Notes: generated by a model from the letters alone, not told the origin. A stretch of 64,000 nucleotides of DNA from Candidatus Dormiibacterota bacterium (GCA_035536395.1 DATLOE010000003.1:35713-99712), one strand, 5' to 3'; shown: positions 1,607 to 21,624, counted from the first letter of the stretch. Program-made: numbers and translations.

Positions 1607-1633
1607 CAGATATAGCCCAGTTACTTTAACTAT

Positions 1634-1661
1634 TGACAACATAAGCTCTTTAGTGTATAGT
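1634..1661 (+). promoter_or_regulatory. Sigma70-like promoter (TTGACA, 16 nt spacer, TATAGT) for the small plus-strand ORF, which would be leaderless
   Basis: TTGACA at 1634-1639 and TATAGT at 1656-1661, with the first ATG at 1671 only 9 nt downstream. Confidence 0.4.
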
Positions 1662-1670
1662 ATTTGCCAT

Positions 1671-1889
1671 ATGAATACTAATGATTTGTTCTACAATTTA
1701 GAGCGCGCATACGGGCGGATTACAGCTATTAATATAGTCCGCTGGGTTATTGCTTACGTGGTATGGATATTTATCTACACCCAGTTGCCGGAGTCGGTTT
1801 GGGTCGTGCGGCCATTTATGACATTCGTGGCTCAAGTGTTGATAGTAGTTATTATGATCGCGGCTATCGAAAAAGCCCGTAAGATGTAA
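1671..1889 (+). CDS. Small hydrophobic membrane protein (72 aa from the ATG at 1671; the track ORF begins at a GTG at 1653)
   Basis: Two predicted transmembrane segments (VRWVIAYVVWIFIY, VAQVLIVVIMIAAI) and a promoter immediately upstream. No homolog recognised. Confidence 0.4.
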   Translation: MNTNDLFYNLERAYGRITAINIVRWVIAYVVWIFIYTQLPESVWVVRPFMTFVAQVLIVVIMIAAIEKARKM

Positions 1890-1946
1890 CGTCGCCTATC
1901 GTTCGGGTAAAGCAAGAACAAAAGGGTGAGGAGTTTAGAGGTATAC

Positions 1947-6316: not shown

Positions 6317-6357
6317 CCGGATGATAACTCCTCTTTAGTTTTTATTTACTCCACCTT

Positions 6358-6446
6358 GCTTATGCCAAGAACAGGGTGTTTAAGACCCCGAGAAAGCATA
6401 AGCGTGATGTGTAGTAATTATACCGCTTATGCTCAGGGAGTGTAAA
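6358..6446 (-). promoter_or_regulatory. Promoter (TTTACA, 18 nt spacer, TATAAT) plus three copies of the GCTTATGC / GCATAAGC motif upstream of the collagen-fibre operon
   Basis: On the minus strand: -35 TTTACA at 6446..6441 and -10 TATAAT at 6422..6417. Motif copies sit at 6358-6365 (forward), 6396-6403 (reverse) and 6425-6432 (forward, directly abutting the -10). Confidence 0.45.
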
Positions 6447-6455
6447 GGGGTAAAA

Positions 6456-6701
6456 TTAGAATCGCCAAGTGACAGTAATGCCGATACCGAAGAGGCCTAG
6501 CAATGAAGCAATTACAAGTATGGCGTACTCTATTTTGCGATCAATCTGCAGCTTTTCATGACGAACTGCAAGTAAGCCCAGAATCAGGCCGAAGGGCAGC
6601 AGGCGGGCCTCGTTAAAAGCAAACCAAACGCTTCCGATAATGAAGTACAGCAGGATTTTTAAAAAGTAGATGCTATCGAGTTCTTGTTTTACAGGTTTCA
6701 T
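6456..6701 (-). CDS. Small two-TM membrane protein (81 aa from the ATG at 6701; the track ORF extends to 6770)
   Basis: An AGGGG ribosome-binding site precedes the ATG at 6701, and the protein has two hydrophobic helices. The motif copy GCTTATGC lies at 6723-6730, 22 nt upstream. Confidence 0.4.
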   Translation of the reverse strand: MKPVKQELDSIYFLKILLYFIIGSVWFAFNEARLLPFGLILGLLAVRHEKLQIDRKIEYAILVIASLLGLFGIGITVTWRF

Positions 6702-6865
6702 ACCCCTATCTAACCACAAAATGCTTATGCTGTCATCTCCAATGCGCTTATCTTGGCGTTCCCACAACATTCCCCTTGCCCGCCTCAGAAGCTCTTGTTA
6801 ATGCTCCTAATGCCTAACGGCACCTATTGCCTGTAGGATGGAGACAGTAATAAAGGGGGTATGCA

Positions 6866-7089
6866 TGGCAAAAGAACGAGGCAAAATGAGTCGGGCCGAG
6901 GCCGGCAAGCTAGGCGGCGAGGCTACGAGTAAAAAACATGATTCAGAGTTCTACTCTGAGATCGGTCAGAAAGGCGGCCAAGAAAGCGGAGGGAACTTTA
7001 AAAATGACCCCGAGCGGGCCAGGGAGGCCGGCAAGAAAGGCGGCCAGGCATCCACTAGCCGGAGCAGAGAGGATACAGAAGAAATATAG
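6866..7089 (+). CDS. KGG-repeat stress-induced protein (YciG / Con-10-like)
   Basis: MAKERGKMSRAEAGKLGGEATSKK...GQKGGQESGGNF...AGKKGGQAS carries three KGG-type repeats. An AAGGGGG ribosome-binding site sits 6 nt before the ATG at 6866 (the track ORF starts at 6838). Confidence 0.6.
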
Positions 7090-7096
7090 CCTGATA

Positions 7097-7125
7097 AAAG
7101 AGCCCCTTCGGGGGCCTTTTTTATT
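7097..7125 (+). terminator. Rho-independent terminator after the KGG gene
   Basis: Hairpin gagcccc-ttcg-ggggc followed by TTTTTTATTTCTCTCTTT. Confidence 0.6.
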
Positions 7126-7305
7126 TCTCTCTTTAAAACAAAATAACGCCTTTGCTGGAGTGGAGTACAAGGCAGAATCGATATCTAAATAAGTTTATAT
7201 TTTGATGAGATGCAAGGCGGCGCTGAAGCGCGCCAGTGAGCAGTAGCCAAACCTACTGTGAATGCGCACTGGAAGCGCCAACGCCGCAGCTCGCGAAATA
7301 CAAAG

Positions 7306-7752
7306 TTATTGCTTGTAGTAGGAGCGGATTTGGAACAGAATGTACAACCCTATAACCGCGCTCACCAGACCGCTTACAATCTGACCGTTCATAATGCTGT
7401 AAACGAGGTTAACGATGTCACTGTAGAACACTAGGTTCCAGCCGCTCATCTTGCGGGCAAACAGGCCCGGCAGAGCTGCTATCATCAACACTACCTGCAC
7501 AATGAGGGCAATTAAAGCCGCGCCCAAACCGGCGGCTGCTGTAGCTCCCCCGAGGCCAGAAAATGGCAGTACGGCCGCGCCTAAGCCCAGCGCCACTAAG
7601 ATGGCCGGTGCCAGAAGCACTAATATTACGATGTTTATCCATGGAGCGTACTTTACTATCCAGTCTTTAGCGCCTTTGGGGATCTGGAAGGGAGCCTTTG
7701 TTACAAAATAATACTCCATCTTTTGCATGATACCTTGTGATTGCTGGGCCAT
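7306..7752 (-). CDS. 4-TM membrane protein, paralog A (unknown family)
   Basis: 148 aa. Shares with paralog B the features W(I/V)V(K/R)(Y/N)A.W, KGWNL, and a C-terminal QIRSYYK. Confidence 0.55.
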   Translation of the reverse strand: MAQQSQGIMQKMEYYFVTKAPFQIPKGAKDWIVKYAPWINIVILVLLAPAILVALGLGAAVLPFSGLGGATAAAGLGAALIALIVQVVLMIAALPGLFARKMSGWNLVFYSDIVNLVYSIMNGQIVSGLVSAVIGLYILFQIRSYYKQ

Positions 7753-7817
7753 AAGTTTTCCTTTACTTAAGGTTAATTTGCTTTAATTAAAGCACTACGG
7801 CACCCAAAAAGCAATAC

Positions 7818-7826
7818 GCTTATGCT
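7818..7826. promoter_or_regulatory. GCTTATGCT motif copy upstream of paralog A
   Basis: cgCTTATGCTTtg lies about 66 nt upstream of the ATG at 7752 and overlaps the stop of the preceding gene. Confidence 0.35.
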
Positions 7827-8281
7827 TTGTAATAAGAGCGAATTTGGAGCAGTATATAGAAGCTAATGCCGGTTATTACTACAGCCGTTACGTAATGGCC
7901 AAAAACGATATCGTATATTGTATGGGTTATGGCAGCCGCGGCCAGCAGATTCCAGCCCTTCATCTCTCTGCGCTCTAGCGGCTTAATGGCCAGTGCGATC
8001 AATATAAACTGGATGATTAATGCTACCGCCCCGCCGCTTATATCACTGGCTGAACTTGGTATACCCAGAAATGCCAGCGGCAGCTTGTTTATACCCAGCA
8101 CCACGGCCAGCGCTACTACCGGCAGATAGAGAATGGTGAGCAATATGGCTACCCAGTGAGCGTTGCGTACGATCCACTCCTTAGCCCAGAAAGGCAGGCG
8201 GTACCCGCCGCCATCGCTGTAGCCGCGCACGGCTGCCTGACGGCCAGAATTGCCCCGGTTTACCTTGCGTCCGCCCGCCAT
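7820..8281 (-). CDS. 4-TM membrane protein, paralog B
   Basis: 153 aa ending QIRSYYKA. A GAAGGGGAA ribosome-binding site lies inside the end of the upstream micro-ORF. Confidence 0.55.
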   Translation of the reverse strand: MAGGRKVNRGNSGRQAAVRGYSDGGGYRLPFWAKEWIVRNAHWVAILLTILYLPVVALAVVLGINKLPLAFLGIPSSASDISGGAVALIIQFILIALAIKPLERREMKGWNLLAAAAITHTIYDIVFGHYVTAVVITGISFYILLQIRSYYKA

Positions 8282-8284
8282 CTG

Positions 8285-8416
8285 CTATTCCCCTTCGACG
8301 CCCGGCAGATCTACCTTGTGGCCGTTCGTACAGTGGCCATGATTGTCTTGTTCCTGGCAGTCTTCATCTTGGCAGTTTAGAGCTACTTCTTCGCTACATT
8401 CTACGCATTTAGCCAT
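8285..8416 (-). CDS. Cys/His-rich 43 aa micro-protein, a putative zinc-binding peptide (below the ORF-track size cutoff)
   Basis: MAKCVECSEEVALNCQDEDCQEQDNHGHCTNGHKVDLPGVEGE, with 6 Cys and 3 His. A consensus AGGAGG ribosome-binding site sits 6 nt upstream, and its stop is 3 nt from the ATG of paralog B. Confidence 0.45.
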   Translation of the reverse strand: MAKCVECSEEVALNCQDEDCQEQDNHGHCTNGHKVDLPGVEGE

Positions 8417-8442
8417 AAATTCCTCCTGTTAGGTTTATTAAT

Positions 8443-8454
8443 GCTTATGCTTAT
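8443..8454. promoter_or_regulatory. Tandem GCTTAT-GCTTAT motif copy upstream of the micro-protein operon
   Basis: atGCTTATGCTTATat lies 27 nt upstream of the ATG at 8416. Confidence 0.35.
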
Positions 8455-8488
8455 ATTTTAGCACATCTGGTGAATATTTTAGAAAAAG

Positions 8489-9154
8489 TTAGCTCTTAAG
8501 CCGAGAGTACTCGGCAATAAGCTTTACCTTATCCTTAAAGTCAGGGGTCGCGCGCCACTTACTCAGTAGCTGCTTGTCTGTCCTTAGGCTATATGAAGCC
8601 CTAGATTTTTCCGCGCTTAAATCTTTAAGCAGTAAGTCGGTCATTAATTCCATAAATAATCTATTTTGGCCCTTACCAATGTCAACTTTGGATTGCCTAA
8701 TATATTCGATAATATATAAATGCATCAGCTCATGCAGTAGCGGATCTATAAAGTTCGGCCAGTCATAATAAAGATCAATGCGTTTTTTATCCGAGAAAGC
8801 AATATGCGGAGGAATTGCCGACAGGCCAATAATACAAATACCAGAAATTTTTACTGGTACAGTTGCTTCACAAATTTTTATTACTCCCCCTCCGTCTTGA
8901 GTCAGTTGTTTTTGCAACCGATCTTTTGCCTTTGCAAATAAGCCTCTGTTTTGCTTATAAAAGTTATCAAAGTAATCTTCTAGCGGTTTGAGCGCGCTTC
9001 CTTTTGGATAGGTCTGATAAATATTGGCGAGATCAGGATGCCGACTCACTATCACATTATAGTAGCTTAATCCTGACCACTCAGGCATTGAATATCCAAA
9101 TGCCCCTGCCTTAAGCGGGTCAAAATCCTTTGCCAGTTGGATTGTAAACTTCAT
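8489..9154 (-). CDS. Cytoplasmic HExxH-motif protein, a putative zinc metallohydrolase of unknown family
   Basis: 221 aa containing DPLLHELMHLYIIEY. A TATAAT at 9169..9164 lies only about 10 nt upstream of the ATG, so the transcript is probably leaderless. Confidence 0.45.
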   Translation of the reverse strand: MKFTIQLAKDFDPLKAGAFGYSMPEWSGLSYYNVIVSRHPDLANIYQTYPKGSALKPLEDYFDNFYKQNRGLFAKAKDRLQKQLTQDGGGVIKICEATVPVKISGICIIGLSAIPPHIAFSDKKRIDLYYDWPNFIDPLLHELMHLYIIEYIRQSKVDIGKGQNRLFMELMTDLLLKDLSAEKSRASYSLRTDKQLLSKWRATPDFKDKVKLIAEYSRLKS

Positions 9155-9210
9155 AGACCATCTATTATAAAGAAAAATGGCCAGTTTGGAGACATGGCCA
9201 GGTCTTTTTT

Positions 9211-9366
9211 CTACTTGTCCTCCCAGCCAGGGTATATCCGCTCCATGGCCTCGTCGGACTTCTGCTCGTCAGAGGCAGAACCCGGAGGGGAGGAGGGAGA
9301 TGAGGAAGAACCAGAGGAATCCGAGCTCTCTGAGCCCGAGGAACCGCTACTGGACTCTCCGTCCAT
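9211..9366 (-). CDS. Ser/Gly-rich acidic 51 aa micro-ORF (uncertain)
   Basis: MDGESSSGSSGSESSDSSGSSSSPSSPPGSASDEQKSDEAMERIYPGWEDK with AAAGGAG 5 nt upstream of the ATG. It competes with the low-complexity track ORFs 9137..9400 (+) and 9165..9482 (-). Confidence 0.3.
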   Translation of the reverse strand: MDGESSSGSSGSESSDSSGSSSSPSSPPGSASDEQKSDEAMERIYPGWEDK

Positions 9367-9547
9367 TTGCACTCCTTTGTCTGGGCATCCAATTTTTTAA
9401 GCTGCCGGACTATCCGGCCTCTTGTCGTATTGGGCGCCGTTTGATAGGTGCTTGGAGGGGATAGGCAGAGCCTAGACGCCATCTCCGTAGCAGTACGCTA
9501 ACTTATACAACAATTACTGCAATTATTCAATAGATGAGTAGCTATGT

Positions 9548-9886
9548 TTACAAATAAAACGCCAAGATGCCATGTTCGGCAATTTTTTCTCTATAGCCCT
9601 GAAAGCCATAATAAACCTTTTCGGCTTCCTCTAGGGATTCTATACCTGGCATAACCTTGCCAAAATCACCTGATTTATAGATGTCTTCTACAGATTTATA
9701 GTGCCTAATGTCTTTCACGGTCTTTTCGATCGTGTCGCTACCGCATTTGATTACTAACGTATCGCCAACTTCGATTTTCTTAAACTTAACTGTGCCAGCG
9801 CGGGTTTCTACCGTCTTCCGCCCCACCCGAATATCTTCGAACTCATCCTTATCCCCCGCCCTGAATCTTAGAATATGCTTTTTCAT
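9548..9886 (-). CDS. ASCH/PUA-like small domain protein
   Basis: 112 aa beginning MKKHILRFRAGDKDEFEDIRVGRKTVETRAG, a pattern that resembles ASCH domains. Assigned from memory. Confidence 0.4.
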   Translation of the reverse strand: MKKHILRFRAGDKDEFEDIRVGRKTVETRAGTVKFKKIEVGDTLVIKCGSDTIEKTVKDIRHYKSVEDIYKSGDFGKVMPGIESLEEAEKVYYGFQGYREKIAEHGILAFYL

Positions 9887-9922
9887 TTTGCCCCCACTGT
9901 GGATAAATCTATTGTCATAGCG

Positions 9923-9948
9923 CTTATGCTTGCTACAATAAGCATAAG
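9923..9948. promoter_or_regulatory. Perfect 9 bp inverted repeat CTTATGCTT-N8-AAGCATAAG, an operator-like site
   Basis: cgCTTATGCTTgctacaatAAGCATAAGta lies 37-62 nt upstream of the ATG at 9886. Confidence 0.45.
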
Positions 9949-10013
9949 TATAATATTCAGAACTAATGCGAGTGGGGAGTGTAGTTGCTTCCCTCTCGTT
10001 TTTTGATCCTTAA

Positions 10014-10214
10014 CTAGTCGTTAAGAAGATCATTAAGCGAGTCTTTGCCGCGCCGCTCGAGCAGCGTGTCGAGATACATATCAGAGCGAACATTAAAGTC
10101 CACCCCATATTGCTCCTCGATCGTGCGTACGTGGGTATCCCCACGCTTCTCACGAAGCGGGCCTCTGGAGTTTCGGGAGCGGTGACCCCGCATCCCTGGA
10201 GCATCCTTAGCCAT
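10014..10214 (-). CDS. Small hypothetical protein (66 aa from MAKDAPG; the track ORF extends to 10265)
   Basis: A GAAAGG ribosome-binding site precedes the internal ATG, and the protein is basic. The motif copy CTTATGCTTGCTAC lies at 10362-10375. Confidence 0.35.
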   Translation of the reverse strand: MAKDAPGMRGHRSRNSRGPLREKRGDTHVRTIEEQYGVDFNVRSDMYLDTLLERRGKDSLNDLLND

Positions 10215-10361
10215 TGCAAGCCTTTCTAGCCGGTGTCTTAAGGTGTTTATCCGGCCAGTCCTCAACCGAACACCACACCGTAAAGGAGAGAGGCCTCCCC
10301 ACTCACATCAATTCTCAAGGAATGAATACTAGGTTAGCAAAAACTCACGTGTCGCACAATA

Positions 10362-10375
10362 CTTATGCTTGCTAC
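10362..10375. promoter_or_regulatory. Motif copy CTTATGCTTGCTAC
   Basis: A 14 nt stretch identical to 9923-9936. Confidence 0.35.
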
Positions 10376-11058
10376 TTGAGGTAGTTGGGCAAGGCTTGGC
10401 GGTTTGGCAGCCACTTAGTATACCAACCAAGCAGTTCCGGAGGCAAAAGACTGTCATGCAATTCAGTACCGATGAAAGAATGCAATTCGTCAGTAAAATC
10501 AGTAGATCCCGGCAGCACACCCCTATGATGGTATGATGCAGTGCGTTGATCAAACGCCGCTTTGTGCTGACCATACACAATATTTAAATATGGGGTCAGG
10601 CGGTTTCTTTCAGATTCTGAACTAATAAACCACACGTAATGTAGATATTCATGGGCTAAAGTTGCCCTTTGCTCTAATAAATCTCTCTGTAAAATCTCCG
10701 GCGCCAAGTAAATAGTGCCGTCTTTAATAGCGCCATAGGCATGATATGAAGCTGCAAAGCAGCCTGTAGAGCCTGGTGGGCAACCCATTGGAAGAGGGGC
10801 AATCCTAGCCTTTGTTCTTAGTAAATCGTCTCGATTAATACCTAAATCTGCGCCCCACTGCTCAATGCGGCGATCAAGAACAAACTTAGGGTCAATCGGG
10901 AAAGAGCCAAGTCCTATTCTTGGGTTATAGCCTATCTTCTCTCGCACACTCTTGATAAGAGGGTGCTCAATCGCCGTGGGATCCAAGACCAAGCCAATTG
11001 CTAACACGGCAATGATGACTGCAACCTTAAAGCCCGTTTTGAAAACATGCTTTTTCAT
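10372..11058 (-). CDS. Secreted or membrane-anchored HExxH-motif protein, a putative zinc metallopeptidase
   Basis: N-terminal hydrophobic segment VAVIIAVLAIGLVL and the motif TLAHEYLHYVWF. Confidence 0.5.
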   Translation of the reverse strand: MKKHVFKTGFKVAVIIAVLAIGLVLDPTAIEHPLIKSVREKIGYNPRIGLGSFPIDPKFVLDRRIEQWGADLGINRDDLLRTKARIAPLPMGCPPGSTGCFAASYHAYGAIKDGTIYLAPEILQRDLLEQRATLAHEYLHYVWFISSESERNRLTPYLNIVYGQHKAAFDQRTASYHHRGVLPGSTDFTDELHSFIGTELHDSLLPPELLGWYTKWLPNRQALPNYLK

Positions 11059-11071
11059 CTTTTAGAAGTTA

Positions 11072-11839
11072 CTAGCTTTCTTTCTGATCCCAAATAATTA
11101 CTTCTTTGTGCAACTCTTGAACTGACTGAAGATAGAAGAGCATATCGCGAGCAGCTCTCTCGACTACATATCCGCGAAGTGAACGCCAATTTTCAACATT
11201 ATCTTGCGACCAGTCTTTTTCAGGAGAATTCAGTAAGAAAGGAAAAAGATTCACATTTTTCTCTAGTTCGGTTAATGCACGTCTTACTTTGAGCATTTTT
11301 GCATAAACGGTTTTTGGCATCACAGAAGAATAATACTGTAGATTCTCATTGGCTGATTTTCTTAATTCTTCAATATTTTTTATTAGGCTGTCCCACTTGT
11401 CGGGTGGTAGCTTAGTCATAGCTTGACCCAGGTCAATTGCAATTAAATTACTGAGTATAGCCTCTTGTGCAGCTTTAGTGGATTCTTCCTGACGGTCGGT
11501 ATCAATTTTGTATTGGGTTATATCAAAGCCTAAAGGTGATGACACCCAGATGATAAGCGTATTACGAAGTCTTTTCATATCCTCAAGGGCGGATTCCATG
11601 CCCTCGCGAAGGCTAAGCTTATCCTTCCTATCCTTCAGTACCTCGATGAAAAATACGGTGAGCAGGGAGCTAAAGGCGCCGGCAGAGAGGTTAAGGGTCA
11701 TGTCACTCCACCGAAAGTGCTTTTCCTGATAGCCTAATGCCACAAAGAGTCCAACCGACATCACCAAAAGGGCGAGAAAAATAATGATATTAGCACGAGA
11801 GTAAAGGAGCCTGTAAAATTTCCTAAAGGCCCGACGCAT
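11072..11839 (-). CDS. Membrane protein with two N-terminal TM segments and a long cytoplasmic helical region, unknown function
   Basis: 255 aa. Its start is 3 nt downstream of the rpsJ stop, so it is probably co-transcribed with tuf-rpsJ. Confidence 0.5.
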
Positions 11840-11842
11840 ACA

Positions 11843-12184
11843 TTACATCTTAATTTCTATGTCCACCCCAGCGGGGAGGTTCAAATTCATCAGGTTGTCT
11901 ACGGTCTTTGGCGTAGGCTCTGTAATGTCTATTAAGCGCTTATGTGTGCGCATCTCAAACTGTTCCCGCGCTTTCTTAAAAATGTGCGGGCTTTTAATAA
12001 CGGTAGTCACGTTTCTATCTGTCGGCAGCGGAATCGGCCCGGCCACTTTGGCGCCGGTACGAATCGCCGTATCTAGAATCTGCTTGGCAGACTGATCTAT
12101 CACCTTATTGTCATACGCCTTTAAGCGAATGCGTATTCTCTGTTTGGGTGCTTCAGTATTTTCTTTCTTTTTTGCTTCTGCCAA
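11843..12184 (-). CDS. rpsJ: 30S ribosomal protein S10
   Basis: Contains [22 protein letters not shown]...HKRLIDI. Confidence 0.95.
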
Positions 12185-13388: not shown

Positions 13389-13501
13389 TTCTTCTCCTTA
13401 TGGGCTGTTTCATTTCAGATTGTTAACCCCGTGAGGACGATCAGCTATCTGAAATGAAGATTTAGTTAACAAAAAATAATGTCCGGTAATCGAACCATTA
13501 A

Positions 13502-13530
13502 ATTATAGGGAGAAGTTCTCCTTTTGTAAA
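13502..13530 (-). promoter_or_regulatory. Consensus sigma70 promoter for tuf (TTTACA, 17 nt spacer, TATAAT)
   Basis: On the minus strand: tttacaaaaggagaacttctccctataat. An about 110 nt 5' UTR follows, containing a 10 bp hairpin at 13411-13420 / 13447-13456. Confidence 0.45.
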
Positions 13531-13547
13531 GGGGGTAAAAAGGAAAA

Positions 13548-13572
13548 GCGGCCCGCTAATTGCGCGAGCCGC
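13548..13572 (-). terminator. Rho-independent terminator after the 143 aa gene
   Basis: On the minus strand: GCGGCTCGC-gcaatta-GCGGGCCGC followed by TTTTCCTTTTT. Confidence 0.5.
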
Positions 13573-14003
13573 TATGTGGCAAACCTTTCTGTACGCTGCC
13601 TGGAGACGACAACCATCTTAATGTACCTATCTGCCAGCTGGGCGTACATTTCCTGCTCCTCCTCAGTAAACCGCTGATTAATGATTATCGGCGCTAAATC
13701 GGCAGTAAATCGGATAGCATACGCCTCTATACTTGGCAGATACTTAAGAATCGCGTGGTGAGCACGCAGGTTTTCATCTAGCTCCGGGTAGTAACAGGTG
13801 CCCAAATTGAGCTTCCCGTACCACATCGCCTCAGCTTCGGGCCGGCCCTCTTTCTTCCACTGCTTTACCTGTTCTAGCATCGGCATAAGATACTGGTGGT
13901 GAATATTACCTCCAGCCGGTATTTCTGTAACGCCTCTCTGTGCCAGTGCACAGCAAAAACCTAGGAAAAAGTGTAGAGTAGGGTGCTCTTCCATGCTCCT
14001 CAC
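13572..14003 (-). CDS. Hypothetical protein (143 aa)
   Basis: An ORF with its own terminator. No recognisable motif. Confidence 0.45.
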   Translation of the reverse strand: MRSMEEHPTLHFFLGFCCALAQRGVTEIPAGGNIHHQYLMPMLEQVKQWKKEGRPEAEAMWYGKLNLGTCYYPELDENLRAHHAILKYLPSIEAYAIRFTADLAPIIINQRFTEEEQEMYAQLADRYIKMVVVSRQRTERFAT

Positions 14004-14149
14004 CTCGCTCGAAAATGTGTATATGCAACCCAGCTTTGTGCTCGGTTGGCTCGATTATAACAGATAAAACCGAAACCTGGCCTTATAGGGTATAATGGGT
14101 TCGATTTGGAATAAACCAAGTTGACCCTCTACAAGCGAAAGCGAGCCGC

Positions 14150-15112
14150 ATGAAGCTCAGAGATATGGAGTTCGGCAATGTCTTCTGTGCTCCGGGTGCT
14201 CGCGGCTTCGGCGGCGAGGGCTACCCGTTCCACAAGGCAGCCCGGCTGCTAGGTATGACCTGGAAAGGCACCACATTCGTAGCCAAAACCATGACCATGA
14301 GAGCCTGTATCGGCAACCTGCCGCTAAAGGGTGACGGGATGACACCGAAAGAGAAGCGGCCGAGGTCGGTTGTAGTTAAGCCATTCAGCGGGCACGTGCT
14401 GAATGCAGCCGGCCTGAGTAATCCGGGTGCGGCCTGGCTGTTTTCCCGAGCTGGGTGGAATAACCTCACGGAGCCTTTCGTGCTCTCCTTTATGGCGGCT
14501 GAGGAAACCCCGGAAGCGCGAATGAATGAGCTGAACCAGTTCGTAACAGTGTTCGAACATTACCTGTACGCACTGAGTGATTTCCAGGCACCGGTGGCGC
14601 TTCAGCTGAACTTCGGTTGCCCAAATATGAGCTTTAGGGCCGACGCACTGCTAGATGAAATCCGCGAAATGCTAGAACTCGCCTCTGGACTGAGCATTCC
14701 CCTGATTGCCAACTTCAGCCCGGTGACGCCAGAGCAGGTAGTTGCCCAGACGGCCTCACACCCGGCTTGTGACGCGCTCTGGATTGCCAACACCGTACCA
14801 TGGGGCTACCCCGAGATCGATTGGCAAAGGATCTTCGGTACAGAAGCTTCACCACTAAGAGAGCAGGGCTTTGAGCAGAGCGGAGGCTTAAGCGGCCCGG
14901 CCTGCCTGCCGCTCACGGCCGCACTGGTTAAGAAAGCCCGGGAGTACGGCATAAGTAAGCCAATCGTAGCCGGCAATGGCATTCAGCGAGCAGAAGACGT
15001 ATTACTGCTGAAGGATGTCGGCGCAGATGCCATAGCGCTTGGTATAGTTGGTATGGTTCGCCCCTGGAGGATGCGCGGCATCATCCGTACTGCAAATGAG
15101 GTGCTCGCCTAA
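14150..15112 (+). CDS. Dihydroorotate dehydrogenase-family (PyrD-like) TIM-barrel flavoenzyme
   Basis: Matches to class 1 DHOD motifs: NAAGLSNPG, NFGCPN, GGLSGP, VAGNGI. Confidence 0.55.
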   Translation: MKLRDMEFGNVFCAPGARGFGGEGYPFHKAARLLGMTWKGTTFVAKTMTMRACIGNLPLKGDGMTPKEKRPRSVVVKPFSGHVLNAAGLSNPGAAWLFSRAGWNNLTEPFVLSFMAAEETPEARMNELNQFVTVFEHYLYALSDFQAPVALQLNFGCPNMSFRADALLDEIREMLELASGLSIPLIANFSPVTPEQVVAQTASHPACDALWIANTVPWGYPEIDWQRIFGTEASPLREQGFEQSGGLSGPACLPLTAALVKKAREYGISKPIVAGNGIQRAEDVLLLKDVGADAIALGIVGMVRPWRMRGIIRTANEVLA

Positions 15113-15155
15113 ATAAAAAAGCCCCTGACTTAGAAGTCGGGGGCTTTCGCCTTTT
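15111..15155. terminator. Bidirectional intrinsic terminator between the convergent PyrD-like gene and fusA
   Basis: gcccctgactt-ag-aagtcgggggc, flanked by an A-run on the 5' side and a T-run on the 3' side. Confidence 0.6.
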
Positions 15156-17235
15156 AAGCCTTGGCTGTGCGCTTACCTATAATTTCTTCAGCCACATTCG
15201 GCGGCACTTCCTCGTAATGATCAAATTCCATCGAGTTCGAGGCCCGGCCTTGGGTCATTGAACGCAGAGTGGTGGTGTAGCCGAACATCTCTGCCAGCGG
15301 CACGAACGCGTCTACCACCTTGGCCTGGCCACGGTCATCCATTTTCTCTATCCGCCCGCGCTTGGAGTTAAGATCACCGATAACATCACCCATAAACTCC
15401 TCGGGTGTTACCACCTCTACCTTCATGACTGGCTCGAGCAGTACCGGGCTGGCCTGCTTTACGCCGGCCTGCAGTGCCATGGAACCGGCAATCTTAAAGG
15501 CCATTTCGCTAGAGTCTACATCGTGGTACGAGCCATCGTAGAGCTTAACGTGCACATCTACCACCGGGTAGCCGGCCAGAACACCATTCTGCAAAGCTTC
15601 TTTTACACCCTGCTCAACTGGGGCAATGTATTCGCGCGGAATATTACCGCCGGTAATAGCGTTCTTGAATTCAAAGCCTGCGCCCGGCTCCTGCGGGGTC
15701 AGCTCCAGCCAGACATGGCCGTACTGGCCGCGGCCGCCGGATTGGCGAATGTACTTGCCTTCGATCTTGGCCGGCTTGCGAATGGTTTCGCGGTAAGCCA
15801 CCTGCGGGCGGCCAATATTGGCCTCTACCTTAAACTCACGCTTCATACGATCTACAATAATATCCAGGTGCAGCTCGCCCATACCAGAAATCAAAGTCTG
15901 GTTGGTTTCGTGATTAGTCGTCATTCTAAATGTCGGATCTTCCTCGGCCAGGCGCTGCAGAGCAATACTCATCTTCTCTTGGTCGGCCTTGGTCTTCGGC
16001 TCGATGGCGATGGAAATAACCGGCTCTGGGAAGGTGATAGATTCCAGTACAATCGGGTGAGCCGGATCGCACAAGGTATTACCAGTAGTGGTAGCCTTAA
16101 GCCCCACGGCGGCGGCGATTTCGCCCGAATAGACCTCGCTGACTTCCTCGCGGTGGTTTGCGTGCATTCTAAGTATTCGCCCCAGCCGCTCCTTTTCGCC
16201 CGTGCTGGAGTTTAGGATATATGAGCCGGATTTTAATACACCCGAGTACACACGGAAAAAAGCCAGCTTACCCACGAACGGGTCGGCGGCGATCTTAAAG
16301 GCCAGGGCAGCAAACGGCTCTTCGTCTGATGCCTTACGGGTAATCTCATCGCCGCTTTTAGGCTCGATACCAGTAATTTCTGGCACATCCAGCGGGCTGG
16401 GCAGGTATGCATTTACGGCATCAAGCAGCTGCTGCACGCCTTTGTTCTTTAGGGCCGAACCACATAATACGGGGTAGATTTCGTTAGCAAGTACCGCCTT
16501 GCGCAGACCGGCCACGATATCTTCAGGACTTAGGTCACCAGCTTCTATGTATTTATCTAGCAAGGCCTCATCGGTCTCGGCTACCCGCTCTACCAAAGTG
16601 TGGCGGTACTCAGCGGCTTTTTCCTTCATGTCTTCTGGAATCTCAGCTTCGTCAAAAACCTTACCGAGGTCGTCTTTAAAGATAATCGCCTTCATATTTA
16701 CTAGGTCTATAATTCCTTTGAATCCACCCTCTGTGCCAATCGGCAGCTGTATGGCTACAGCCTTTTTGCTTAGGCGATCCCAAATGCTTTTAAGGTCGGC
16801 AAAAAAATCGGCACCGGTACGATCGAGCTTGTTTACAAAGCAAATGCGCGGCACTTCATATTTGTCGGCCTGGCGCCAAACGGTTTCTGATTGCGGTTCA
16901 ACACCAGCAACCCCATCAAAAACCGTTACTCCGCCATCTAGCACCCGCAAGCTGCGCTCTACCTCTACGGTAAAATCTACGTGGCCCGGGGTATCGATGA
17001 TGTTAATGCGGTGATCTTGCCAGAAGCAAGTGGTAGCAGCCGAGGTAATAGTAATGCCGCGCTCCTGCTCTTGCTCCATCCAGTCCATGGTGGCTTCACC
17101 CTCATGCACCTCACCGATTTTGTGGGTGCGACCGGTGTAAAACAAAACCCGCTCGGTAACTGTCGTTTTACCGGCGTCGATGTGGGCGATGATGCCTATA
17201 TTCCTGGTTTTTTCTAAGCTATATTCTCTGGCCAT
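15154..17235 (-). CDS. fusA: Elongation factor G
   Basis: 693 aa containing AHIDAGKTT. Confidence 0.97.
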
Positions 17236-17312
17236 GCTTCATAAATTAAAAATGGGCGTCGGCTGACACCTTGAATAGTCTATCTTATATAACCGGTTTA
17301 TTCAATAGAAAA

Positions 17313-17336
17313 GCGGGGTAACAAACGTTACCCCGC
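17313..17336 (-). terminator. Intrinsic terminator (gcggggtaac-aaac-gttaccccgc followed by TTTTCTATT on the minus strand)
   Basis: Seen in the sequence. It lies downstream of the 163 aa gene and upstream of the fusA promoter region. Confidence 0.55.
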
Positions 17337-17342
17337 ATGTAG

Positions 17343-17834
17343 CTAAAAGCGATGGTCTTTTACCTCACGCCCTATTATCTGTACCTTACCGCAGCAGATG
17401 ACAAAATACTTCTTTTCCCAAGTATCACCATCGACACTATCGAAGGTTTGCTCGTACGACCTAATAAGCGGCTGAGACGCTCCGCAGCTAGGGCACTCCT
17501 CGTGCTTAACTTCTGCCAGCGTCTGGACTAGCCGTCTGTTTTCGGCCACCTCTACCTCCTCCGGCAGAAGCAATTCCACCAGCAGAGGGTAGCCATCTGA
17601 GTCCATAAAGGTATAGTGAGCACCATACTTGCCTGGATCTGCGGTATTCCAGCATCTTGGCAATGCCGCCAAGATTTCTTTTATCTCTTTCAGTTCCTGG
17701 GCTCTTTGGTGGGTTTCATTTAGATATGCCTGAGCCTGCCCTCGCTTGTAATTGAGTTCCTCTACTTCAGCCTCGAACTCATCAGACGGGAGCAGGCCTG
17801 TGCCCTGGGCGGTTCTGACAGCTGTAAGGTTCAT
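17343..17834 (-). CDS. Hypothetical protein with a C-terminal Cys cluster (CPSCG...CCG), possibly a zinc ribbon
   Basis: 163 aa. No known family recognised. Confidence 0.45.
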   Translation of the reverse strand: MNLTAVRTAQGTGLLPSDEFEAEVEELNYKRGQAQAYLNETHQRAQELKEIKEILAALPRCWNTADPGKYGAHYTFMDSDGYPLLVELLLPEEVEVAENRRLVQTLAEVKHEECPSCGASQPLIRSYEQTFDSVDGDTWEKKYFVICCGKVQIIGREVKDHRF

Positions 17835-17891
17835 CTTCTCTCCAATCGAAAGTAGGTAGCGACATCATACAGCCTGCGGGTGAGAGGTTCT

Positions 17892-17909
17892 AGTCAAAAC
17901 CTTTTGACT
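17892..17909. promoter_or_regulatory. Perfect palindrome AGTCAAAA-cc-TTTTGACT
   Basis: An 8 bp inverted repeat with a 2 nt spacer, immediately downstream of the wHTH-Nudix gene and upstream of the 163 aa gene. Confidence 0.35.
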
Positions 17910-17912
17910 AAG

Positions 17913-18575
17913 CTAGGCGTAATTCAATTCTGCGAAGAAGCGCTGGCTGGGGTTTTGGGCGAGCAGGTATATTAGATCGGGCACGCTTACAATCAGTTTG
18001 TCGTCTTTAATATCCGCAATATCAGCCCAAAAGCTCTCGCCGGCTTTAACCCTAGCTTTAAGTTTGCCAGACGGGCTCTGCCCGTAAAAGAGGTGGAACA
18101 GAATCTGGCTGACCGGCTCCCCTTCCTCGCAGATAGAAATGTAGCCATCACCGCGGTGTGTGAGCGCAACACTCAAACCTGTCTTTTCCTTAAGTTCGCG
18201 CTCAGCTGCCTCTTTAACACTCTCACCTATGTGCAGCTTACCGTACGGAAAGCCCACCTGGCCGTACAGAGGCTGGCGGCGGCGGCGGAACATCAGCCAC
18301 TGCCCTTCCTCGTTTTGGCAGACGATCAAAGTTACGATTCTAGGCTGCAAACGCGGTTTAAAAAGCTGCAGACTGAACTGGTCGGCCCGCACCTTGCCCT
18401 CTGGTGTCAGCTCATATAGACCATCGTCTGTCTTTTCCACCAAACCCTCTTTTGTCAGCTGGCGCAGGTGGTACATAAAGAGATTACCCTCCACCTCAGC
18501 CGGCTTAAGTTGGGAATAACGCAGCTGGGAGTTGGTGATTAGTTTATGGAAGATGTGTTTTTGCAGACGGTGCAT
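17913..18575 (-). CDS. Nudix hydrolase with an N-terminal winged-helix DNA-binding domain
   Basis: Nudix box GKLHIGESVKEAAERELKEKTGL (G-x5-E-x7-REUxEExGU). The N-terminal 60 aa (HKLITNSQLRYSQL...YHLRQLTKEGLV) resemble a winged helix-turn-helix. Confidence 0.6.
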   Translation of the reverse strand: MHRLQKHIFHKLITNSQLRYSQLKPAEVEGNLFMYHLRQLTKEGLVEKTDDGLYELTPEGKVRADQFSLQLFKPRLQPRIVTLIVCQNEEGQWLMFRRRRQPLYGQVGFPYGKLHIGESVKEAAERELKEKTGLSVALTHRGDGYISICEEGEPVSQILFHLFYGQSPSGKLKARVKAGESFWADIADIKDDKLIVSVPDLIYLLAQNPSQRFFAELNYA

Positions 18576-18620
18576 AATTAATTAATAGTCCTTCGTGCTA
18601 GAGCATACCAGTTAATTATT

Positions 18621-18663
18621 TTTGACTCAAATTTTTTCGACTAGATACTATTTGACTCAAATT
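18621..18663. promoter_or_regulatory. Two perfect 13 nt direct repeats TTTGACTCAAATT, 30 bp apart, in the divergent promoter region
   Basis: Copies at 18621-18633 and 18651-18663. They lie between the wHTH-Nudix gene (-) and the four-gene operon (+). Confidence 0.4.
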
Positions 18664-18710
18664 CTAATATGAGGTCGTTGGGTGAGAAAGCAACTTGAAA
18701 AGGAGCCGAA

Positions 18711-18950
18711 ATGGCAGATACGAACCAACTATCGTTCAGTGCTCTCGAATGCTGGTGCGACGGCCGCCGCGGCCACACGACCGAGGAAGAAACCTCGCCA
18801 TATCTGATGTACTTTAGAGGGTCAGACGGCTATAGGTTTGAAACTGAGTTTGTGGGCCTGCGCCATCTCTGCCCGGCTTGTGTAACGCGTATAAGCGAGA
18901 TGATGTGCTATTACCTAGAGGAGGTGCAGTATGAGCGACTGTATTGCTGA
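18711..18950 (+). CDS. Hypothetical small protein with C-x-C...C-x2-C (79 aa)
   Basis: An AAAGGAG ribosome-binding site; the protein contains ECWCDGRRGH...CPAC. Confidence 0.45.
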   Translation: MADTNQLSFSALECWCDGRRGHTTEEETSPYLMYFRGSDGYRFETEFVGLRHLCPACVTRISEMMCYYLEEVQYERLYC

Positions 18951-19302
18951 AGAAGCTGCCGTTTTGGCAGAAAAAGAACAATGGGTTCAAAATGCTGCCA
19001 GGATAATAAGTGACTGTATCGATAATATCGATATGGAAGTTGCCGTGAGCTCAGCACGATGGGCCTCTCTTTGGCTCGATGACGTAAAGCTGTACGAGCC
19101 GCTGGAAGACAGGGATAGAGCGATAGAGGTAATTAAATCGGCCTTTAGCAGCTCACTTGAGAGAGCAGAGGGAGTTGAGCGTTACCCCACGGGGGTGCCT
19201 TCCATACGAAGCATGATTGCCGCAAAAGAGGCATTCTGCCTAGCGTATGGCAATGAAGCCCAAGGGATGAAAAAGCTCTTAGACGAAGTCTTTGCCGCCT
19301 GA
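18931..19302 (+). CDS. Hypothetical protein (123 aa)
   Basis: Overlaps the upstream gene by 20 nt, suggesting translational coupling. Confidence 0.45.
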   Translation: MSDCIAEEAAVLAEKEQWVQNAARIISDCIDNIDMEVAVSSARWASLWLDDVKLYEPLEDRDRAIEVIKSAFSSSLERAEGVERYPTGVPSIRSMIAAKEAFCLAYGNEAQGMKKLLDEVFAA

Positions 19303-19387
19303 CCTACTCCCGGCCAAGCGTGGCCGGGAGTAATGCACTTAAGCTTGCTACACTACCCGCTTTCCCCTATAACTGCCTCTACAAACC

Positions 19388-19855
19388 TTGACAGTGAAAG
19401 AAGGTAAAATGTCTGGCAAACTTGAGCCAACACGGGTACGCAGCGAAGTGCTGCCAGCCGACCCGCAGCCTGTTTTTGCGCTTGTGCTGAACTTCACTGA
19501 CCTATCCGATGAGCATCTTGCAGAGATTTCGATTCTATCGGGCGGAAGCGATCGCACAATCATTCAGGTTGAACCGGAACTGTTTAATACAGAAAAAGAT
19601 GCAGCCGGTGCATGGCAAAAGCTTTGCAAGCTGCTTGCGCCGTACACCTACGAAATGCTGTTCATTTTGGTGCCTTGGGGATTCAGGGGATTCGAACAGA
19701 TTGTGGAGGCAATCTATCTGGAGCAAGGGCGTGACCCATTCACCTTGATTCAGGTGGGATATTCCGTCTACGAGATGGGTATGGGGATGCGCCTCATAAA
19801 TCAGCCTGGAGCCCTCGAGGTAGGCAGCGGGTCCTTAGAGGAGAAGATTAGATGA
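19388..19855 (+). CDS. Hypothetical protein (155 aa)
   Basis: Preceded by the hairpin ctcccggcc-aagcgt-ggccgggag at 19305-19330. Confidence 0.45.
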   Translation: MTVKEGKMSGKLEPTRVRSEVLPADPQPVFALVLNFTDLSDEHLAEISILSGGSDRTIIQVEPELFNTEKDAAGAWQKLCKLLAPYTYEMLFILVPWGFRGFEQIVEAIYLEQGRDPFTLIQVGYSVYEMGMGMRLINQPGALEVGSGSLEEKIR

Positions 19856-20631
19856 GCCAAGCATACGCCTTTGAGATCCCATACTGTGACGCTGAAATTG
19901 CCGCCAGACTAATTGAGTCTGTTCCACCGGATTGGAGTTGGATCGACGGACAAGTAGATGCTCCTCTGAAAGAAGTTGCGGAAGGATTGGTAGCTAGGGC
20001 CGGGTATAAAATATGCCGTTTCGACAGCATTGCAGTAGTTACCTTGAATGAGGAGGGAGAAAGAAACGATTTCTTCCATTTTTCTAGCGAACAACGCACA
20101 TCAATCCTGATGTACCGCCGGGAAGCCAAGCTTGCGTTGGTCGGCTTGGGTCTTATGCCGTTGTTTGTCAGATTCGATGAAGCCGGTTTTGACCAGCAGG
20201 AGTGCGGAGATATGCCGTTTGAATCTGCCAAGCGAATTGCAAGTGAGTACGTCTGCCGAGGCTATCTGGGTGACCTGTTCTTCCGCAGCGATTGCTACGA
20301 CAATTGCGGTAGCTACAATCCGGAAAGGTGTGATATACACCTTGCGCCCTACACGGCCAGATGGCACAGAATGGAGGGAAGGCCTCCAGTTATTCCTTTT
20401 TCCGAGCTAGAAGCAGCCTACAAAGCCGGCAACCGGCAGCGGATCAAGGATATCAAGGCCAATAACGACCCGCCCAAAGCACAATTCCCCGCACTCATCA
20501 AAATAGAGTGGGAGAAAAAGTATGGCGGCAGACCGGAGAGAATAGCCGGGATACTGGATGCTTGCCGTGAGCTAGGACTAAAAGAACTCGACCCTGAACC
20601 GATTGAATACGGCACTTCATATGCCGAGTAA
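19852..20631 (+). CDS. Hypothetical protein (259 aa), Cys-rich in its central region
   Basis: Its start overlaps the upstream stop as ATGA. A terminator follows. Confidence 0.5.
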   Translation: MSQAYAFEIPYCDAEIAARLIESVPPDWSWIDGQVDAPLKEVAEGLVARAGYKICRFDSIAVVTLNEEGERNDFFHFSSEQRTSILMYRREAKLALVGLGLMPLFVRFDEAGFDQQECGDMPFESAKRIASEYVCRGYLGDLFFRSDCYDNCGSYNPERCDIHLAPYTARWHRMEGRPPVIPFSELEAAYKAGNRQRIKDIKANNDPPKAQFPALIKIEWEKKYGGRPERIAGILDACRELGLKELDPEPIEYGTSYAE

Positions 20632-20635
20632 CGCC

Positions 20636-20680
20636 CTCTTACTGCGAGCGAAAGCCCTCGGTAAGAGGGCTTTTTTTATA
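20636..20680 (+). terminator. Intrinsic terminator (GCCCTCTTAC...GTAAGAGGGC followed by TTTTTTT)
   Basis: A 10 bp stem with an 18 nt loop and a T-run, between the convergent gene ends. Confidence 0.6.
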
Positions 20681-20690
20681 ATTATCTTTA

Positions 20691-21167
20691 CTAGTATCTG
20701 GCGAAGTGAGCGAAGGCTTTATTGGCCTCGGCCATCTTGTGGGTGTCTTCTTTCTTCTTAACGGCGTCGCCAGCGCTGTTGTAGGCATCCATCAGCTCTT
20801 TGGCTAAAATCTTATCGAACGCCCGGCCGCCTTTTGCACGAGCCGCGCCGATTATCCAGATCATAGCGTAGTGAATCTTGCGATCACCCCGGACTTCCAT
20901 TGGTACCTGGTAAGTGGCGCCACCGACCCGCTTGGCCTTGACCTGCACAGATGGAGCGACATTCTTAATTGCGGTTTCAAAAATCTCTACCGGATCCTTC
21001 TTAAGCTGATCACCGGCCTGCTCCATAGCATCGTACAGCAGCTGCTCGGCCAGACGCTTTTTGCCGTCTTGCATGATTTTATTAATCATTTTGGTAACTA
21101 AAACATTCTGATACTTTACATCAGGTATTAATTCTCTCTTAAAAGATTTCGTCTTCTTACGCGGCAT
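20691..21167 (-). CDS. rpsG: 30S ribosomal protein S7
   Basis: 158 aa with S7 motifs. Confidence 0.95.
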   Translation of the reverse strand: MPRKKTKSFKRELIPDVKYQNVLVTKMINKIMQDGKKRLAEQLLYDAMEQAGDQLKKDPVEIFETAIKNVAPSVQVKAKRVGGATYQVPMEVRGDRKIHYAMIWIIGAARAKGGRAFDKILAKELMDAYNSAGDAVKKKEDTHKMAEANKAFAHFARY

Positions 21168-21581
21168 TTACTTTTTTTCCTTCTTGGCACCGTACTTACT
21201 GCGCCCTTGCTTACGGTTAGAAACACCAGCCGCATCGAGCGAGCCACGCACAATCGTATAGCGTACACCGGCTAAGTCTTTAGGGCCGCCGCCGCGAATC
21301 AGTACCACCGAGTGCTCTTGCAGGTTGTGGCCAATTCCGGGAATATAAGCCGTTACCTCCATACCGTTGGTTAACCGTACACGAGCAATCTTACGCAGAG
21401 CCGAGTTCGGCTTACGCGGGGTGGTAGTGCTGACCTTAATGCAGACTCCACGCTTCAGCGGCGAAGGATGCACGTAGCTCCTGCCCTTGAGCGCGTTTAA
21501 GGTCCGGGAAAGGGCCGGCGTTTTGGTCTTCTTCTTTGGATCTTTCCGCGGCTTGCGGATTAGCTGGTTAATGGTTGGCAT
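21168..21581 (-). CDS. rpsL: 30S ribosomal protein S12
   Basis: Begins [10 protein letters not shown] and contains PKKPNSA-like regions. Confidence 0.95.
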
Positions 21582-21624
21582 AGCTGGGATAGTTTCTCAG
21601 ATTTTTACTGGTTTAGTCAACATT

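Follow-up and report, generated by a model that had tools for sequence, protein, structure and literature searches.

A putative nucleotide-sensing winged-helix–Nudix autorepressor between rpsG and fusA of a Candidatus Dormiibacterota bacterium

Transcription factors that join a Nudix-fold domain to a winged helix are represented by the NrtR family (Rodionov et al., 2008; PMC2330246). In NrtR, a perturbed Nudix signature accompanies the loss of hydrolysis, and ADP-ribose is the effector that releases the protein from DNA (PMC2330246). We describe here a gene for a putative regulator in which the two domains come in the opposite order, located in a 64-kb stretch of DNA from a Candidatus Dormiibacterota bacterium (64,000 nucleotides; GCA_035536395.1 DATLOE010000003.1:35713-99712). 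This whole stretch is called the window below, and all window coordinates are counted from its first letter. A literature search returned no description of a family in which the winged helix is N-terminal and the Nudix domain C-terminal.

The rpsL-rpsG-fusA-tuf operon is nearly universal. In the window, the str gene order on the minus strand is rpoC, rpsL, rpsG, a 3,455-bp block (17236-20690) and fusA. The original prediction had about 3.4 kb with six plausible genes between rpsG and fusA, and this was confirmed. Besides the winged-helix–Nudix protein, the block encodes five proteins named here P163, P79, P123, P148 and P259.

The regulator, its palindrome and its genomic positions

The regulator gene and the palindromes beside it are placed as follows (ORF, open reading frame; aa, amino acids).

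17913-18575, minus strand: ORF for the winged-helix–Nudix protein (220 aa), with Pfam matches
18622-18660, no strand: candidate operator cassette in the 135-bp divergent promoter region, with TTGACTCAA at 18622-18630, TCGACTAGA at 18637-18645 and TTGACTCAA at 18652-18660, centres 15 bp apart

The 220-aa protein matches Pfam NUDIX over residues 79-190 (E=1.1e-12, 48.6 bits vs. a cut-off of 21.1) and several winged-helix families match residues ~4-72 weakly, which bears out the predicted domain order, reversed relative to NrtR. A profile search of the PDB ranked MutT/MTH1-type proteins first (E 3e-10 to 1e-7), with the NrtR-family protein AraR (5bs6) at E=1.7e-5 and ADP-ribose pyrophosphatases at 4e-5 to 5e-4, and returned no solved chain spanning both the winged-helix and the Nudix domain. 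ADP-ribose signalling, one of the roles suggested originally, is not favored, as the closest solved relatives are MutT/MTH1-type proteins rather than ADP-ribose pyrophosphatases. A metagenome scan with the Nudix alignment recovered 15 further orthologs (40-65% identity). The range over all recovered orthologs is 36-65%, with 47% for the ortholog in L018 (related loci are given by such L numbers).

All 14 aligned family members have the same Nudix box, G-x5-E-x7-R-E-L-x-E-K-x-G. Residues G112, E118, R126, E127, L128, E130, G133 and L134 agree with the full box (G-x5-E-x7-R-E-U-x-E-E-x-G-U), but position 131 is Lys, not Glu, in 14 of 14. The signature is perturbed as in non-catalytic NrtR members (R-E-L-x-E-K for R-E-U-x-E-E). 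The counterpart of the invariant Lys position in MutT, Glu57, is among the most critical catalytic residues by mutagenesis; some active Nudix enzymes have variant boxes. Because the second catalytic Glu is always Lys, and by analogy with NrtR, we predict that the domain is a sensor without efficient hydrolysis (non- or poorly catalytic) rather than an enzyme. The predicted recognition helix, NLFMYHL, is also conserved, with M-Y-H-L invariant in the 14 aligned members.

Every one of the 16 family genes (that of the window among them) is preceded by the palindrome TTGA(G/C)TCAA, 18-81 nt ahead of its start codon; the match is exact in 13 and has one mismatch in three. Exact sites number 18 in the 4,352 bp of DNA upstream of Nudix genes vs. 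2 in the other 310,709 bp fetched, an enrichment of ~640-fold. Only two exact copies of TTGASTCAA are present in the 64-kb window (at 18622 and 18652), both in the divergent region. The intergenic sequence around the 9-mer has diverged between loci and the 9-mer has been retained. Its conservation is symmetric, with an invariant TCAA, mirrored T/A flanks and a central G or C in either orientation. Along with the invariant defect in the Nudix box, the palindrome provides comparative evidence that argues for the regulator originally predicted.

Pairs of palindromes 30-31 bp apart were found in the window, L018 (two pairs) and L023, and exact copies of the degenerate middle element TCGACTAGA occur in the window, L023, L026 and L034. 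In L018, one pair lies beside the Nudix gene, and a second cassette (palindrome-GACTAGA-palindrome) precedes the divergent operon. The first palindrome of the window forms a -35-like box on the plus strand (TTGACT-16/18-GATACT/TACTAT, from the promoter scan) and on the minus strand (TTGAGT-17-TATGCT, from our own reading), the latter likewise in several orthologs. The second palindrome likely covers the plus-strand transcription start. Such a layout would be classic for a repressor controlling two back-to-back promoters, and we consider the protein to be a putative nucleotide-sensing autorepressor.

Palindromes with one mismatch are not enriched in the window (11 vs. 9.8 expected). One such copy, TTTAGTCAA at 21612-21620 in the 43-nt rpoC-rpsL spacer, reads TTGACTAAA on the minus strand and is perhaps no more than the rpsL promoter's -35 box. 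A second exact TCGACTAGA at 38217-38225, near the divergent starts of a 413-aa gene and a PBP gene, has no palindrome alongside and was rejected as probably a chance occurrence.

The winged-helix–Nudix gene is located between rpsG and fusA in the window, L018 and L025, and follows rpsG in L024, where the contig ends before fusA. The block had been described as a single accessory insertion, a description at odds with the presence of the Nudix gene at this junction in four divergent genomes. RpoC is only 61-67% identical among these genomes, thus the Nudix part is ancient. The comparison indicates that the gene is an old, vertically inherited and conserved resident of the junction, the surroundings of which vary. 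The gene often occupies this junction and then shares the orientation of the str genes; in L021, L022, L027, L029, L031 and L032 it is located elsewhere.

The order in L018 is rpoB-rpoC-rpsL-rpsG, four plus-strand genes (including a P259 homolog with 36% identity and a P148-like gene), the minus-strand winged-helix–Nudix ortholog, then fusA directly, without P163. By our own reading of both sequences, RpsG of L018 is ~70% identical to that of the window. L025 has rpsG, an 88-aa ORF, Nudix, ABC-F, fusA and tuf; L024 has rpsG, two small opposite-strand ORFs, Nudix and ABC-F; and L028 has Nudix and ABC-F. The ABC-F gene in these three loci occupies the position of P163 in the window. The Nudix-ABC-F pairs are at 3809-6132 in L025 (7-nt overlap, between rpsG and fusA), 4132-6020 in L024 and 67-2233 in L028, and the ancestral str operon may have contained such a pair of regulator and ABC-F-type ATPase genes. 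No homologs of the ABC-F, HD, HAD or RNase H proteins that neighbor the regulator elsewhere were identified in the 64-kb window, and the 15 further regulator loci encode no relative of P79, P123, P148, P259 or P163.

L031 and L032 have an HD_3/YfbR-like 5'-deoxynucleotidase as the divergent partner of the regulator, and L021 has an NT5C-like HAD nucleotidase. The other neighbors examined are the ABC-F gene, RNase H, leuS, orphans and P148/P259. No NAD-metabolism genes were identified among the neighbors examined. Because divergent partners elsewhere are 5'-deoxynucleotidases, the signal sensed is most likely tied to the (deoxy)nucleotide pool.

Layout of the block and the P148–P259 pair

The flanking genes, the other ORFs of the block and the predicted transcription signals are listed below.

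21168-21581, minus strand: rpsL, ORF
20691-21167, minus strand: rpsG (ribosomal protein S7), 158-aa ORF, upstream flank of the block
17236-20690: block of 3,455 bp that splits the minus-strand str genes and holds six ORFs
15154-17235, minus strand: fusA (EF-G), 693-aa ORF, downstream flank of the block, named elongation factor G by NCBI
17343-17834, minus strand: P163 (163 aa), ORF with a CPSC...CC cysteine cluster
18711-18950, plus strand: P79 (79 aa), ORF
18931-19302, plus strand: P123 (123 aa), ORF with a 20-nt overlap with the P79 ORF
19409-19855, plus strand: P148 (148 aa), NCBI start ATG at 19409
19852-20631, plus strand: P259 (259 aa), ORF whose start overlaps the P148 stop by 4 nt (ATGA)
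20650-20674, probably both strands: strong hairpin terminator between the convergent P259 and rpsG, from the terminator scan (-25.7 kcal/mol, z=-5.5)
17313-17336, minus strand: intrinsic terminator of the predicted Nudix-P163 unit, just upstream of fusA (10-bp stem with 7 GC pairs; -19.5 kcal/mol, z=-4.8)
19305-19332, plus strand: stem-loop between P123 and P148, a perfect 12-bp GC-rich stem with no U-tract (-25.7 kcal/mol, z=-3.5)
17890-17909, no strand: AT-rich perfect palindrome TAGTCAAAA-CC-TTTTGACTA between the Nudix stop and the P163 start, read from the sequence

An identical 6.2-kb Logan contig exists, on which Pfam Ribosomal_S7 is recorded for rpsG. The rpsG gene is 71-75% identical to its counterparts in L024 and L025, and fusA is 71% identical to fusA of L025. 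All six block ORFs are annotated as genes by NCBI (VNA68_00675 to VNA68_00700), under the label Candidatus Dormibacteraeota for the source metagenome-assembled genome, and all six proteins are singletons at 90% identity. An alternative TTG start at 19388 would extend P148 to 155 aa. In a codon model built from 18 large window genes, in which each ORF was scored in its own frame vs. the other five, the own frame was the best of six for every block ORF. This supports the four plus-strand ORFs as coding, as originally predicted. P123 scores 0.13 (vs. -0.16 for the best other frame) and P163 scores 0.19 (vs. -0.18); P259, at 0.10, is under the lowest training gene (0.14), and P79 is the weakest (-0.04). 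GC skew is positive over the plus-strand ORFs and follows the coding strand. The GC content of the block (0.46-0.53) is the same as that of its flanks. No flanking tRNA, long flanking direct repeats or integrase were found at the block, and an Rfam scan of the window from 12 to 22 kb gave nothing relevant.

The strong terminator predicted to bound the block is present at 20650-20674, with U7 after the hairpin on the plus strand and only a short U-run on the minus strand, as read from the sequence. It is probably bidirectional, ending the rpsL-rpsG transcript too. Both bounding terminators fold far better than shuffled sequence. P163 starts 78 nt after the Nudix gene and is probably co-transcribed with it. 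The palindrome at 17890-17909, in this spacer, holds two operator-like half-sites pointing outward and a TTTGACTAA match. It folds weakly as RNA (-7.9 kcal/mol, z=-1.5), has no equivalent in L018, and could be an extra binding site or just chance. The stem-loop at 19305-19332 is possibly a partial terminator or an RNA-stabilizing hairpin that splits the plus-strand "operon" in two. A weak promoter-like match follows it (TTGCTA-17-TATAAC at ~19346-19374, read from the sequence), which fails the -10 rule of the promoter scan. We predict the transcription units Nudix-P163, P79-P123 and P148-P259, the last two possibly linked by read-through. With these units, fusA and tuf would require promoters of their own. 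The best promoter match of the region sits just upstream of tuf.

The four plus-strand proteins had been described as lacking recognizable domains, and indeed no match to Pfam, NCBIfam, PHROG or PADLOC was found for P79, P123, P148 or P259, nor for P163. An exhaustive HMMER search with P259 yielded 143 representative clusters at E<1e-3 (4 at E<1e-30), and most of the relatives are ~200 aa long. Pfam matches were absent from 75 members of the family, and a PDB sequence search with P259 returned no match. The AlphaFold2 model of P259 is confident (predicted local distance difference test, pLDDT, 95; predicted template modelling score, pTM, 0.89), but Foldseek with this model found nothing at E<=1e-3 in the PDB (best 1.5e-3, template modelling score, TM, 0.25) or in BFVD. 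The residues conserved in at least 90% of family members are Pro, Trp, Gly, Leu, Phe and Tyr. Thus, the alpha/beta protein P259 is suggested to be a scaffold or binding protein more than an enzyme. A profile comparison of its thirds revealed no internal repeats. Scans with the P259 alignment recovered two distant solo homologs from genomes and none from metagenomes or viruses.

A P148-like gene adjoins the P259-like gene in L003, L008 and L020 (touching or overlapping by <=8 nt); in L018 the two have changed places, with the P259 homolog first. The four plus-strand genes had been taken as one conserved operon; in these four loci only the P148-like and P259-like genes co-occur. The P148 homologs are 24-32% identical. 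Of the five contexts of the pair (the four loci and the window), the regulator is absent from three (L003, L008, L020). Paired P259 proteins form a long subfamily (237-268 aa) with an extra ~40-residue helical insert, and no P148-like partner accompanies the short (~200-aa) relatives of L012 to L015 and L036. The AlphaFold2 model of P148, from a 4-sequence alignment, is poor (pLDDT 48.7), with an alternating beta/alpha pattern. P148 and P259 would probably form a complex.

The window and L003 are syntenic over PBP-PIN-RadA-ClpC-NusA...RNaseHII-L19 (47-77% identity; 57-77% over PBP-PIN-RadA-ClpC-NusA). In L003, radA and clpC, which are separated by 49 nt in the window (43276-43324), flank an island of five genes that includes the pair. 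Because L003 carries the pair at this point, comparison of the loci indicates that P148–P259 is a portable, translationally coupled two-gene module, tied neither to the rpsG-fusA junction nor to the Nudix gene. The L003 island (7254-10792) encodes a 159-aa Cys-rich protein, an alpha/beta hydrolase (253 aa), a 236-aa Cys-containing protein and the P148-like and P259-like proteins, and the same hydrolase (62% identity) is encoded upstream of the pair in L008. The syntenic relatives are unlabelled metagenome contigs.

P259 relatives are found among housekeeping genes (dus, gltX, clpC, radA, csrA) and not in defence islands. Some family members (P0018, P0022, P0029, P0057, P0106 and L036 5573-6580; 333-346 aa) share a conserved N-terminal extension of ~125 residues, possibly a helical, winged-helix-like domain, that has no Pfam match and no similarity to P148. 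L013, a metagenome-assembled genome (MAG) labelled Candidatus Saccharibacteria, encodes two P259-family paralogs (6896-7585 and 8043-8669), ~450 bp apart with an opposite-strand ORF between them, neither with a P148-like partner. Another distant P259 homolog is from a MAG labelled Gammaproteobacteria.

Conservation in relatives, which was the expectation for the whole gene set, holds for the Nudix gene and the P148/P259 pair. In contrast, P79, P123 and P163 are lineage-specific orphans: tblastn of P123 in the related loci gave no homolog, and neither P79 nor P163 has a homolog in any related locus. P79, the first ORF behind the putatively regulated promoter, is Cys-rich (CxC...CxxC), with an AAGGAG ribosome-binding site 5 nt upstream. 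P123 is mostly helical by composition. P163 has an N-terminal coiled-coil-like region and a C-terminal zinc-ribbon-like Cys cluster, and its family matches are only weak and of zinc-ribbon type (Lar_restr_allev, E=0.13). The first gene behind the operator cassette in L018 (1325-2163) encodes a 164-aa Cys-rich protein with both ends resembling winged helices. Small Cys-rich, possibly zinc-ribbon, proteins thus recur ahead of the pair (P79 in the window, the 164-aa protein in L018, the 236-aa protein in L003), without detectable sequence similarity among these three.

Other interruptions of the ribosomal gene clusters were identified in the window. A second accessory block, between fusA and tuf (13389-15153), contains two ORFs.

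13572-14003, minus strand: 143-aa orphan
14150-15112, plus strand: 320-aa protein that weakly resembles dihydroorotate dehydrogenases (Pfam DHO_dh 1e-8; it falls far short of the NCBIfam equivalog cut-offs)

In L025, tuf comes directly after fusA. Between rpsJ (11843-12184) and rplC (770-1438) there are ~10.4 kb of non-ribosomal genes (1439-11842), including an ASCH-domain protein (9548-9886), several ORFs without a family and two proteins with collagen repeats (one of 592 aa, the other of 864 aa and containing a Kelch propeller). The blocks at these junctions therefore break the str/S10 supercluster at no fewer than three junctions in the window genome.

Proposed mechanism and alternative explanations

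We propose that the block is a mosaic of three layers (the regulator, the P148–P259 cargo and the orphans), in which a dimeric, nucleotide-releasable repressor controls itself and the divergent genes. We consider the chance of this being correct to be somewhat better than even. The winged-helix–Nudix protein would bind TTGA(G/C)TCAA as a dimer through the recognition helix NLFMYHL, and its three sites in the window would cover the shared -35 box of both promoters and the likely plus-strand transcription start. Bound repressor would then shut off its own transcript (Nudix and P163) and the divergent P79-P123. The divergent transcript may read through the hairpin into P148–P259, a pair that would have landed behind the regulated promoter as cargo. 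Binding of a nucleoside di- or triphosphate derivative to the MutT/MTH1-like Nudix sensor would release the DNA, following the logic of NrtR.

Several points weigh against this proposal. A single Glu-to-Lys change does not establish that catalysis is lost. The left half of the palindrome doubles as a -35-like hexamer, with TATGCT 16-17 nt on, so the conservation could partly be that of a promoter. The enrichment of exact sites has a nominal Poisson P of ~1e-44, which is overstated as the loci are related by descent. No operator was found near the pair in L003, L008 or L020, and thus the functional link between the regulator and the pair is at best local. Two of six long-subfamily P259 loci are beside the regulator, and both are in the same chromosomal spot, which shared ancestry could explain as well as selection. 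The hairpin at 19305-19332 and the weak promoter-like match before P148 may uncouple P148–P259 from the regulated promoter. Finally, the codon score of P79 is weak, and the P148 model is too poor for any fold claim.

Of the alternatives, all of which we rate lower, the strongest is that the Nudix protein is an active MutT-type housekeeping pyrophosphohydrolase and the palindrome is the -35 box of a conserved strong promoter, with the winged helix having another use (or serving autoregulation only) and the plus-strand ORFs being independent. Such an enzyme would account for the clean Pfam NUDIX match, the eight of nine intact signature positions and the nearest solved relatives, MutT and MTH1, which are true enzymes. 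A promoter element would fit the position of the palindrome 16-17 nt before TATGCT in several orthologs, and independent ORFs would fit the weak promoter-like match and hairpin ahead of P148. However, the symmetric conservation extends beyond the -35 hexamer, the tandem sites have a fixed spacing (15 or 30-31 bp), the distance from palindrome to start codon is variable (-18 to -81), and no other gene in the 64-kb window uses the exact palindrome. Also against an active enzyme is the Lys that all 14 aligned members carry in place of the second Glu of the EE pair. On balance we find this explanation unlikely.

It is more doubtful still that the whole 3.4 kb is a recent, horizontally acquired island between rpsG and fusA, with the small ORFs partly annotation noise. 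This would be consistent with six proteins that are all singletons at 90% identity (three of them, P79, P123 and P163, without homologs), with the below-average codon scores of P259 and P79, and with the further accessory blocks at the fusA-tuf and rpsJ-rplC junctions. The Nudix gene, however, is at the same junction in genomes with RpoC 61-67% identical, so that part must be ancient. The GC content of the block is like that of the flanks, neither an integrase nor a flanking tRNA nor long flanking repeats were found, the in-frame codon signal is clear for five of the six ORFs, and the GC skew tracks the coding strand.

We give equally little credence to a more elaborate scenario, in which the regulator would be a fixed docking site in the str operon, with variable cargo repeatedly captured behind its divergent promoter. 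P148–P259 would then be a new nucleotide-signal-responsive effector system (for conflict or nucleotide salvage) that responds to disturbance of the (deoxy)nucleotide pool, such as by phage infection.

Least probable in our view is the defence role raised in the original prediction, namely a conflict island in which a nucleotide- or ADP-ribose-sensing regulator switches on anti-phage or toxin-immunity ORFs on the plus strand: several regulator families do sit beside diverse defence systems, and the block does combine a conserved regulator with variable cargo (small, fast-evolving orphans and a translationally coupled pair, on this reading), but the PADLOC matches of the regulator are weak and generic (PDC-S07 3.7e-8 for the Nudix part, WH_III-A 9e-4, AbiEi 0.04), the five other proteins have no PADLOC (E<=1) or PHROG match, tblastn with P259 against phage and plasmid records and with P163 against phage records gave no match, viral-contig scans found nothing for P259, P163, P123 or the regulator, P259 lacks conserved catalytic-type residues and has its relatives amid housekeeping genes, the block encodes no nuclease, ATPase, TIR, SIR2 or similar effector, and other divergent partners of the regulator are nucleotide-metabolism enzymes.

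Significance and comparison with known systems

If the proposed repressor is correct, it would represent a second, independently built class of Nudix-based transcription factor, with the winged helix in front and a MutT-like sensor behind, and TTGA(G/C)TCAA would be the defined operator of this new class. Resident and accessory genes can, as this locus also shows, divide the rpsL-rpsG-fusA-tuf operon into separate transcription units. The unannotated family defined by P259 comprises at least 143 clusters, and the confident model, with no significant Foldseek match in the PDB or BFVD, makes it a reasonable target for structure determination. The value of these findings is in new family definitions and a testable regulon, which bear on the sensing of nucleotide pools in a little-studied lineage.

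We considered whether P259 is a triphosphate tunnel metalloenzyme of the CYTH type. Its top Foldseek matches in the PDB are a Vtc4-containing complex (7ytj_E, E=1.5e-3) and the CYTH protein 1yem (E ~1.4), but it was rejected as a member (TM 0.21-0.25, root-mean-square deviation 14-19 angstroms; 19 angstroms at the best TM of 0.25). Unlike CYTH proteins, the P259 family has no conserved ExExK motif in the first strand and no conserved charged residues.

The arrangement of the regulator resembles that of TetR-tetA, a divergent autorepressor and its cargo, in its back-to-back genes, short intergenic region (135 bp here) and operators that overlap both promoters. It differs in the protein family and in having cargo that varies by genome; control of the cargo is suggested here by the positions of the sites. 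With MutT/MTH1-type hydrolases (PF00293) the protein shares the Pfam score (48.6 bits vs. 21.1), the conserved G-x5-E-x7-R-E-U-x-E and its best solved relatives. Unlike them, it has Lys for the second Glu, an N-terminal winged helix and a conserved operator, and its activity is predicted to be low.

The closest comparison is with NrtR. In common are the Nudix-fold domain fused to a winged helix, the perturbed Nudix signature and the palindromic operators upstream of the regulator's own and neighboring genes. The expected logic, in which a nucleotide-derived ligand weakens DNA binding, would also be shared, and the Nudix part is detectably, if weakly, related to AraR (5bs6; E=1.7e-5). The order of domains is reversed, however, with the winged helix (~4-72) N-terminal and NUDIX (79-190) C-terminal, and the Nudix domain is nearer to MutT/MTH1 than to ADP-ribose pyrophosphatases. 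The operator is a different motif, the short TTGA(G/C)TCAA in tandem at 15/30-bp spacing. NrtR is linked to NAD genes, whereas the neighbors here are 5'-deoxynucleotidases, an ABC-F gene, orphans and P148–P259. Thus, we infer that the winged-helix–Nudix regulator works like NrtR without being a member of that family. It is a new twist on a known type of regulator, not a new system, and leaves the current understanding of such regulators in place.

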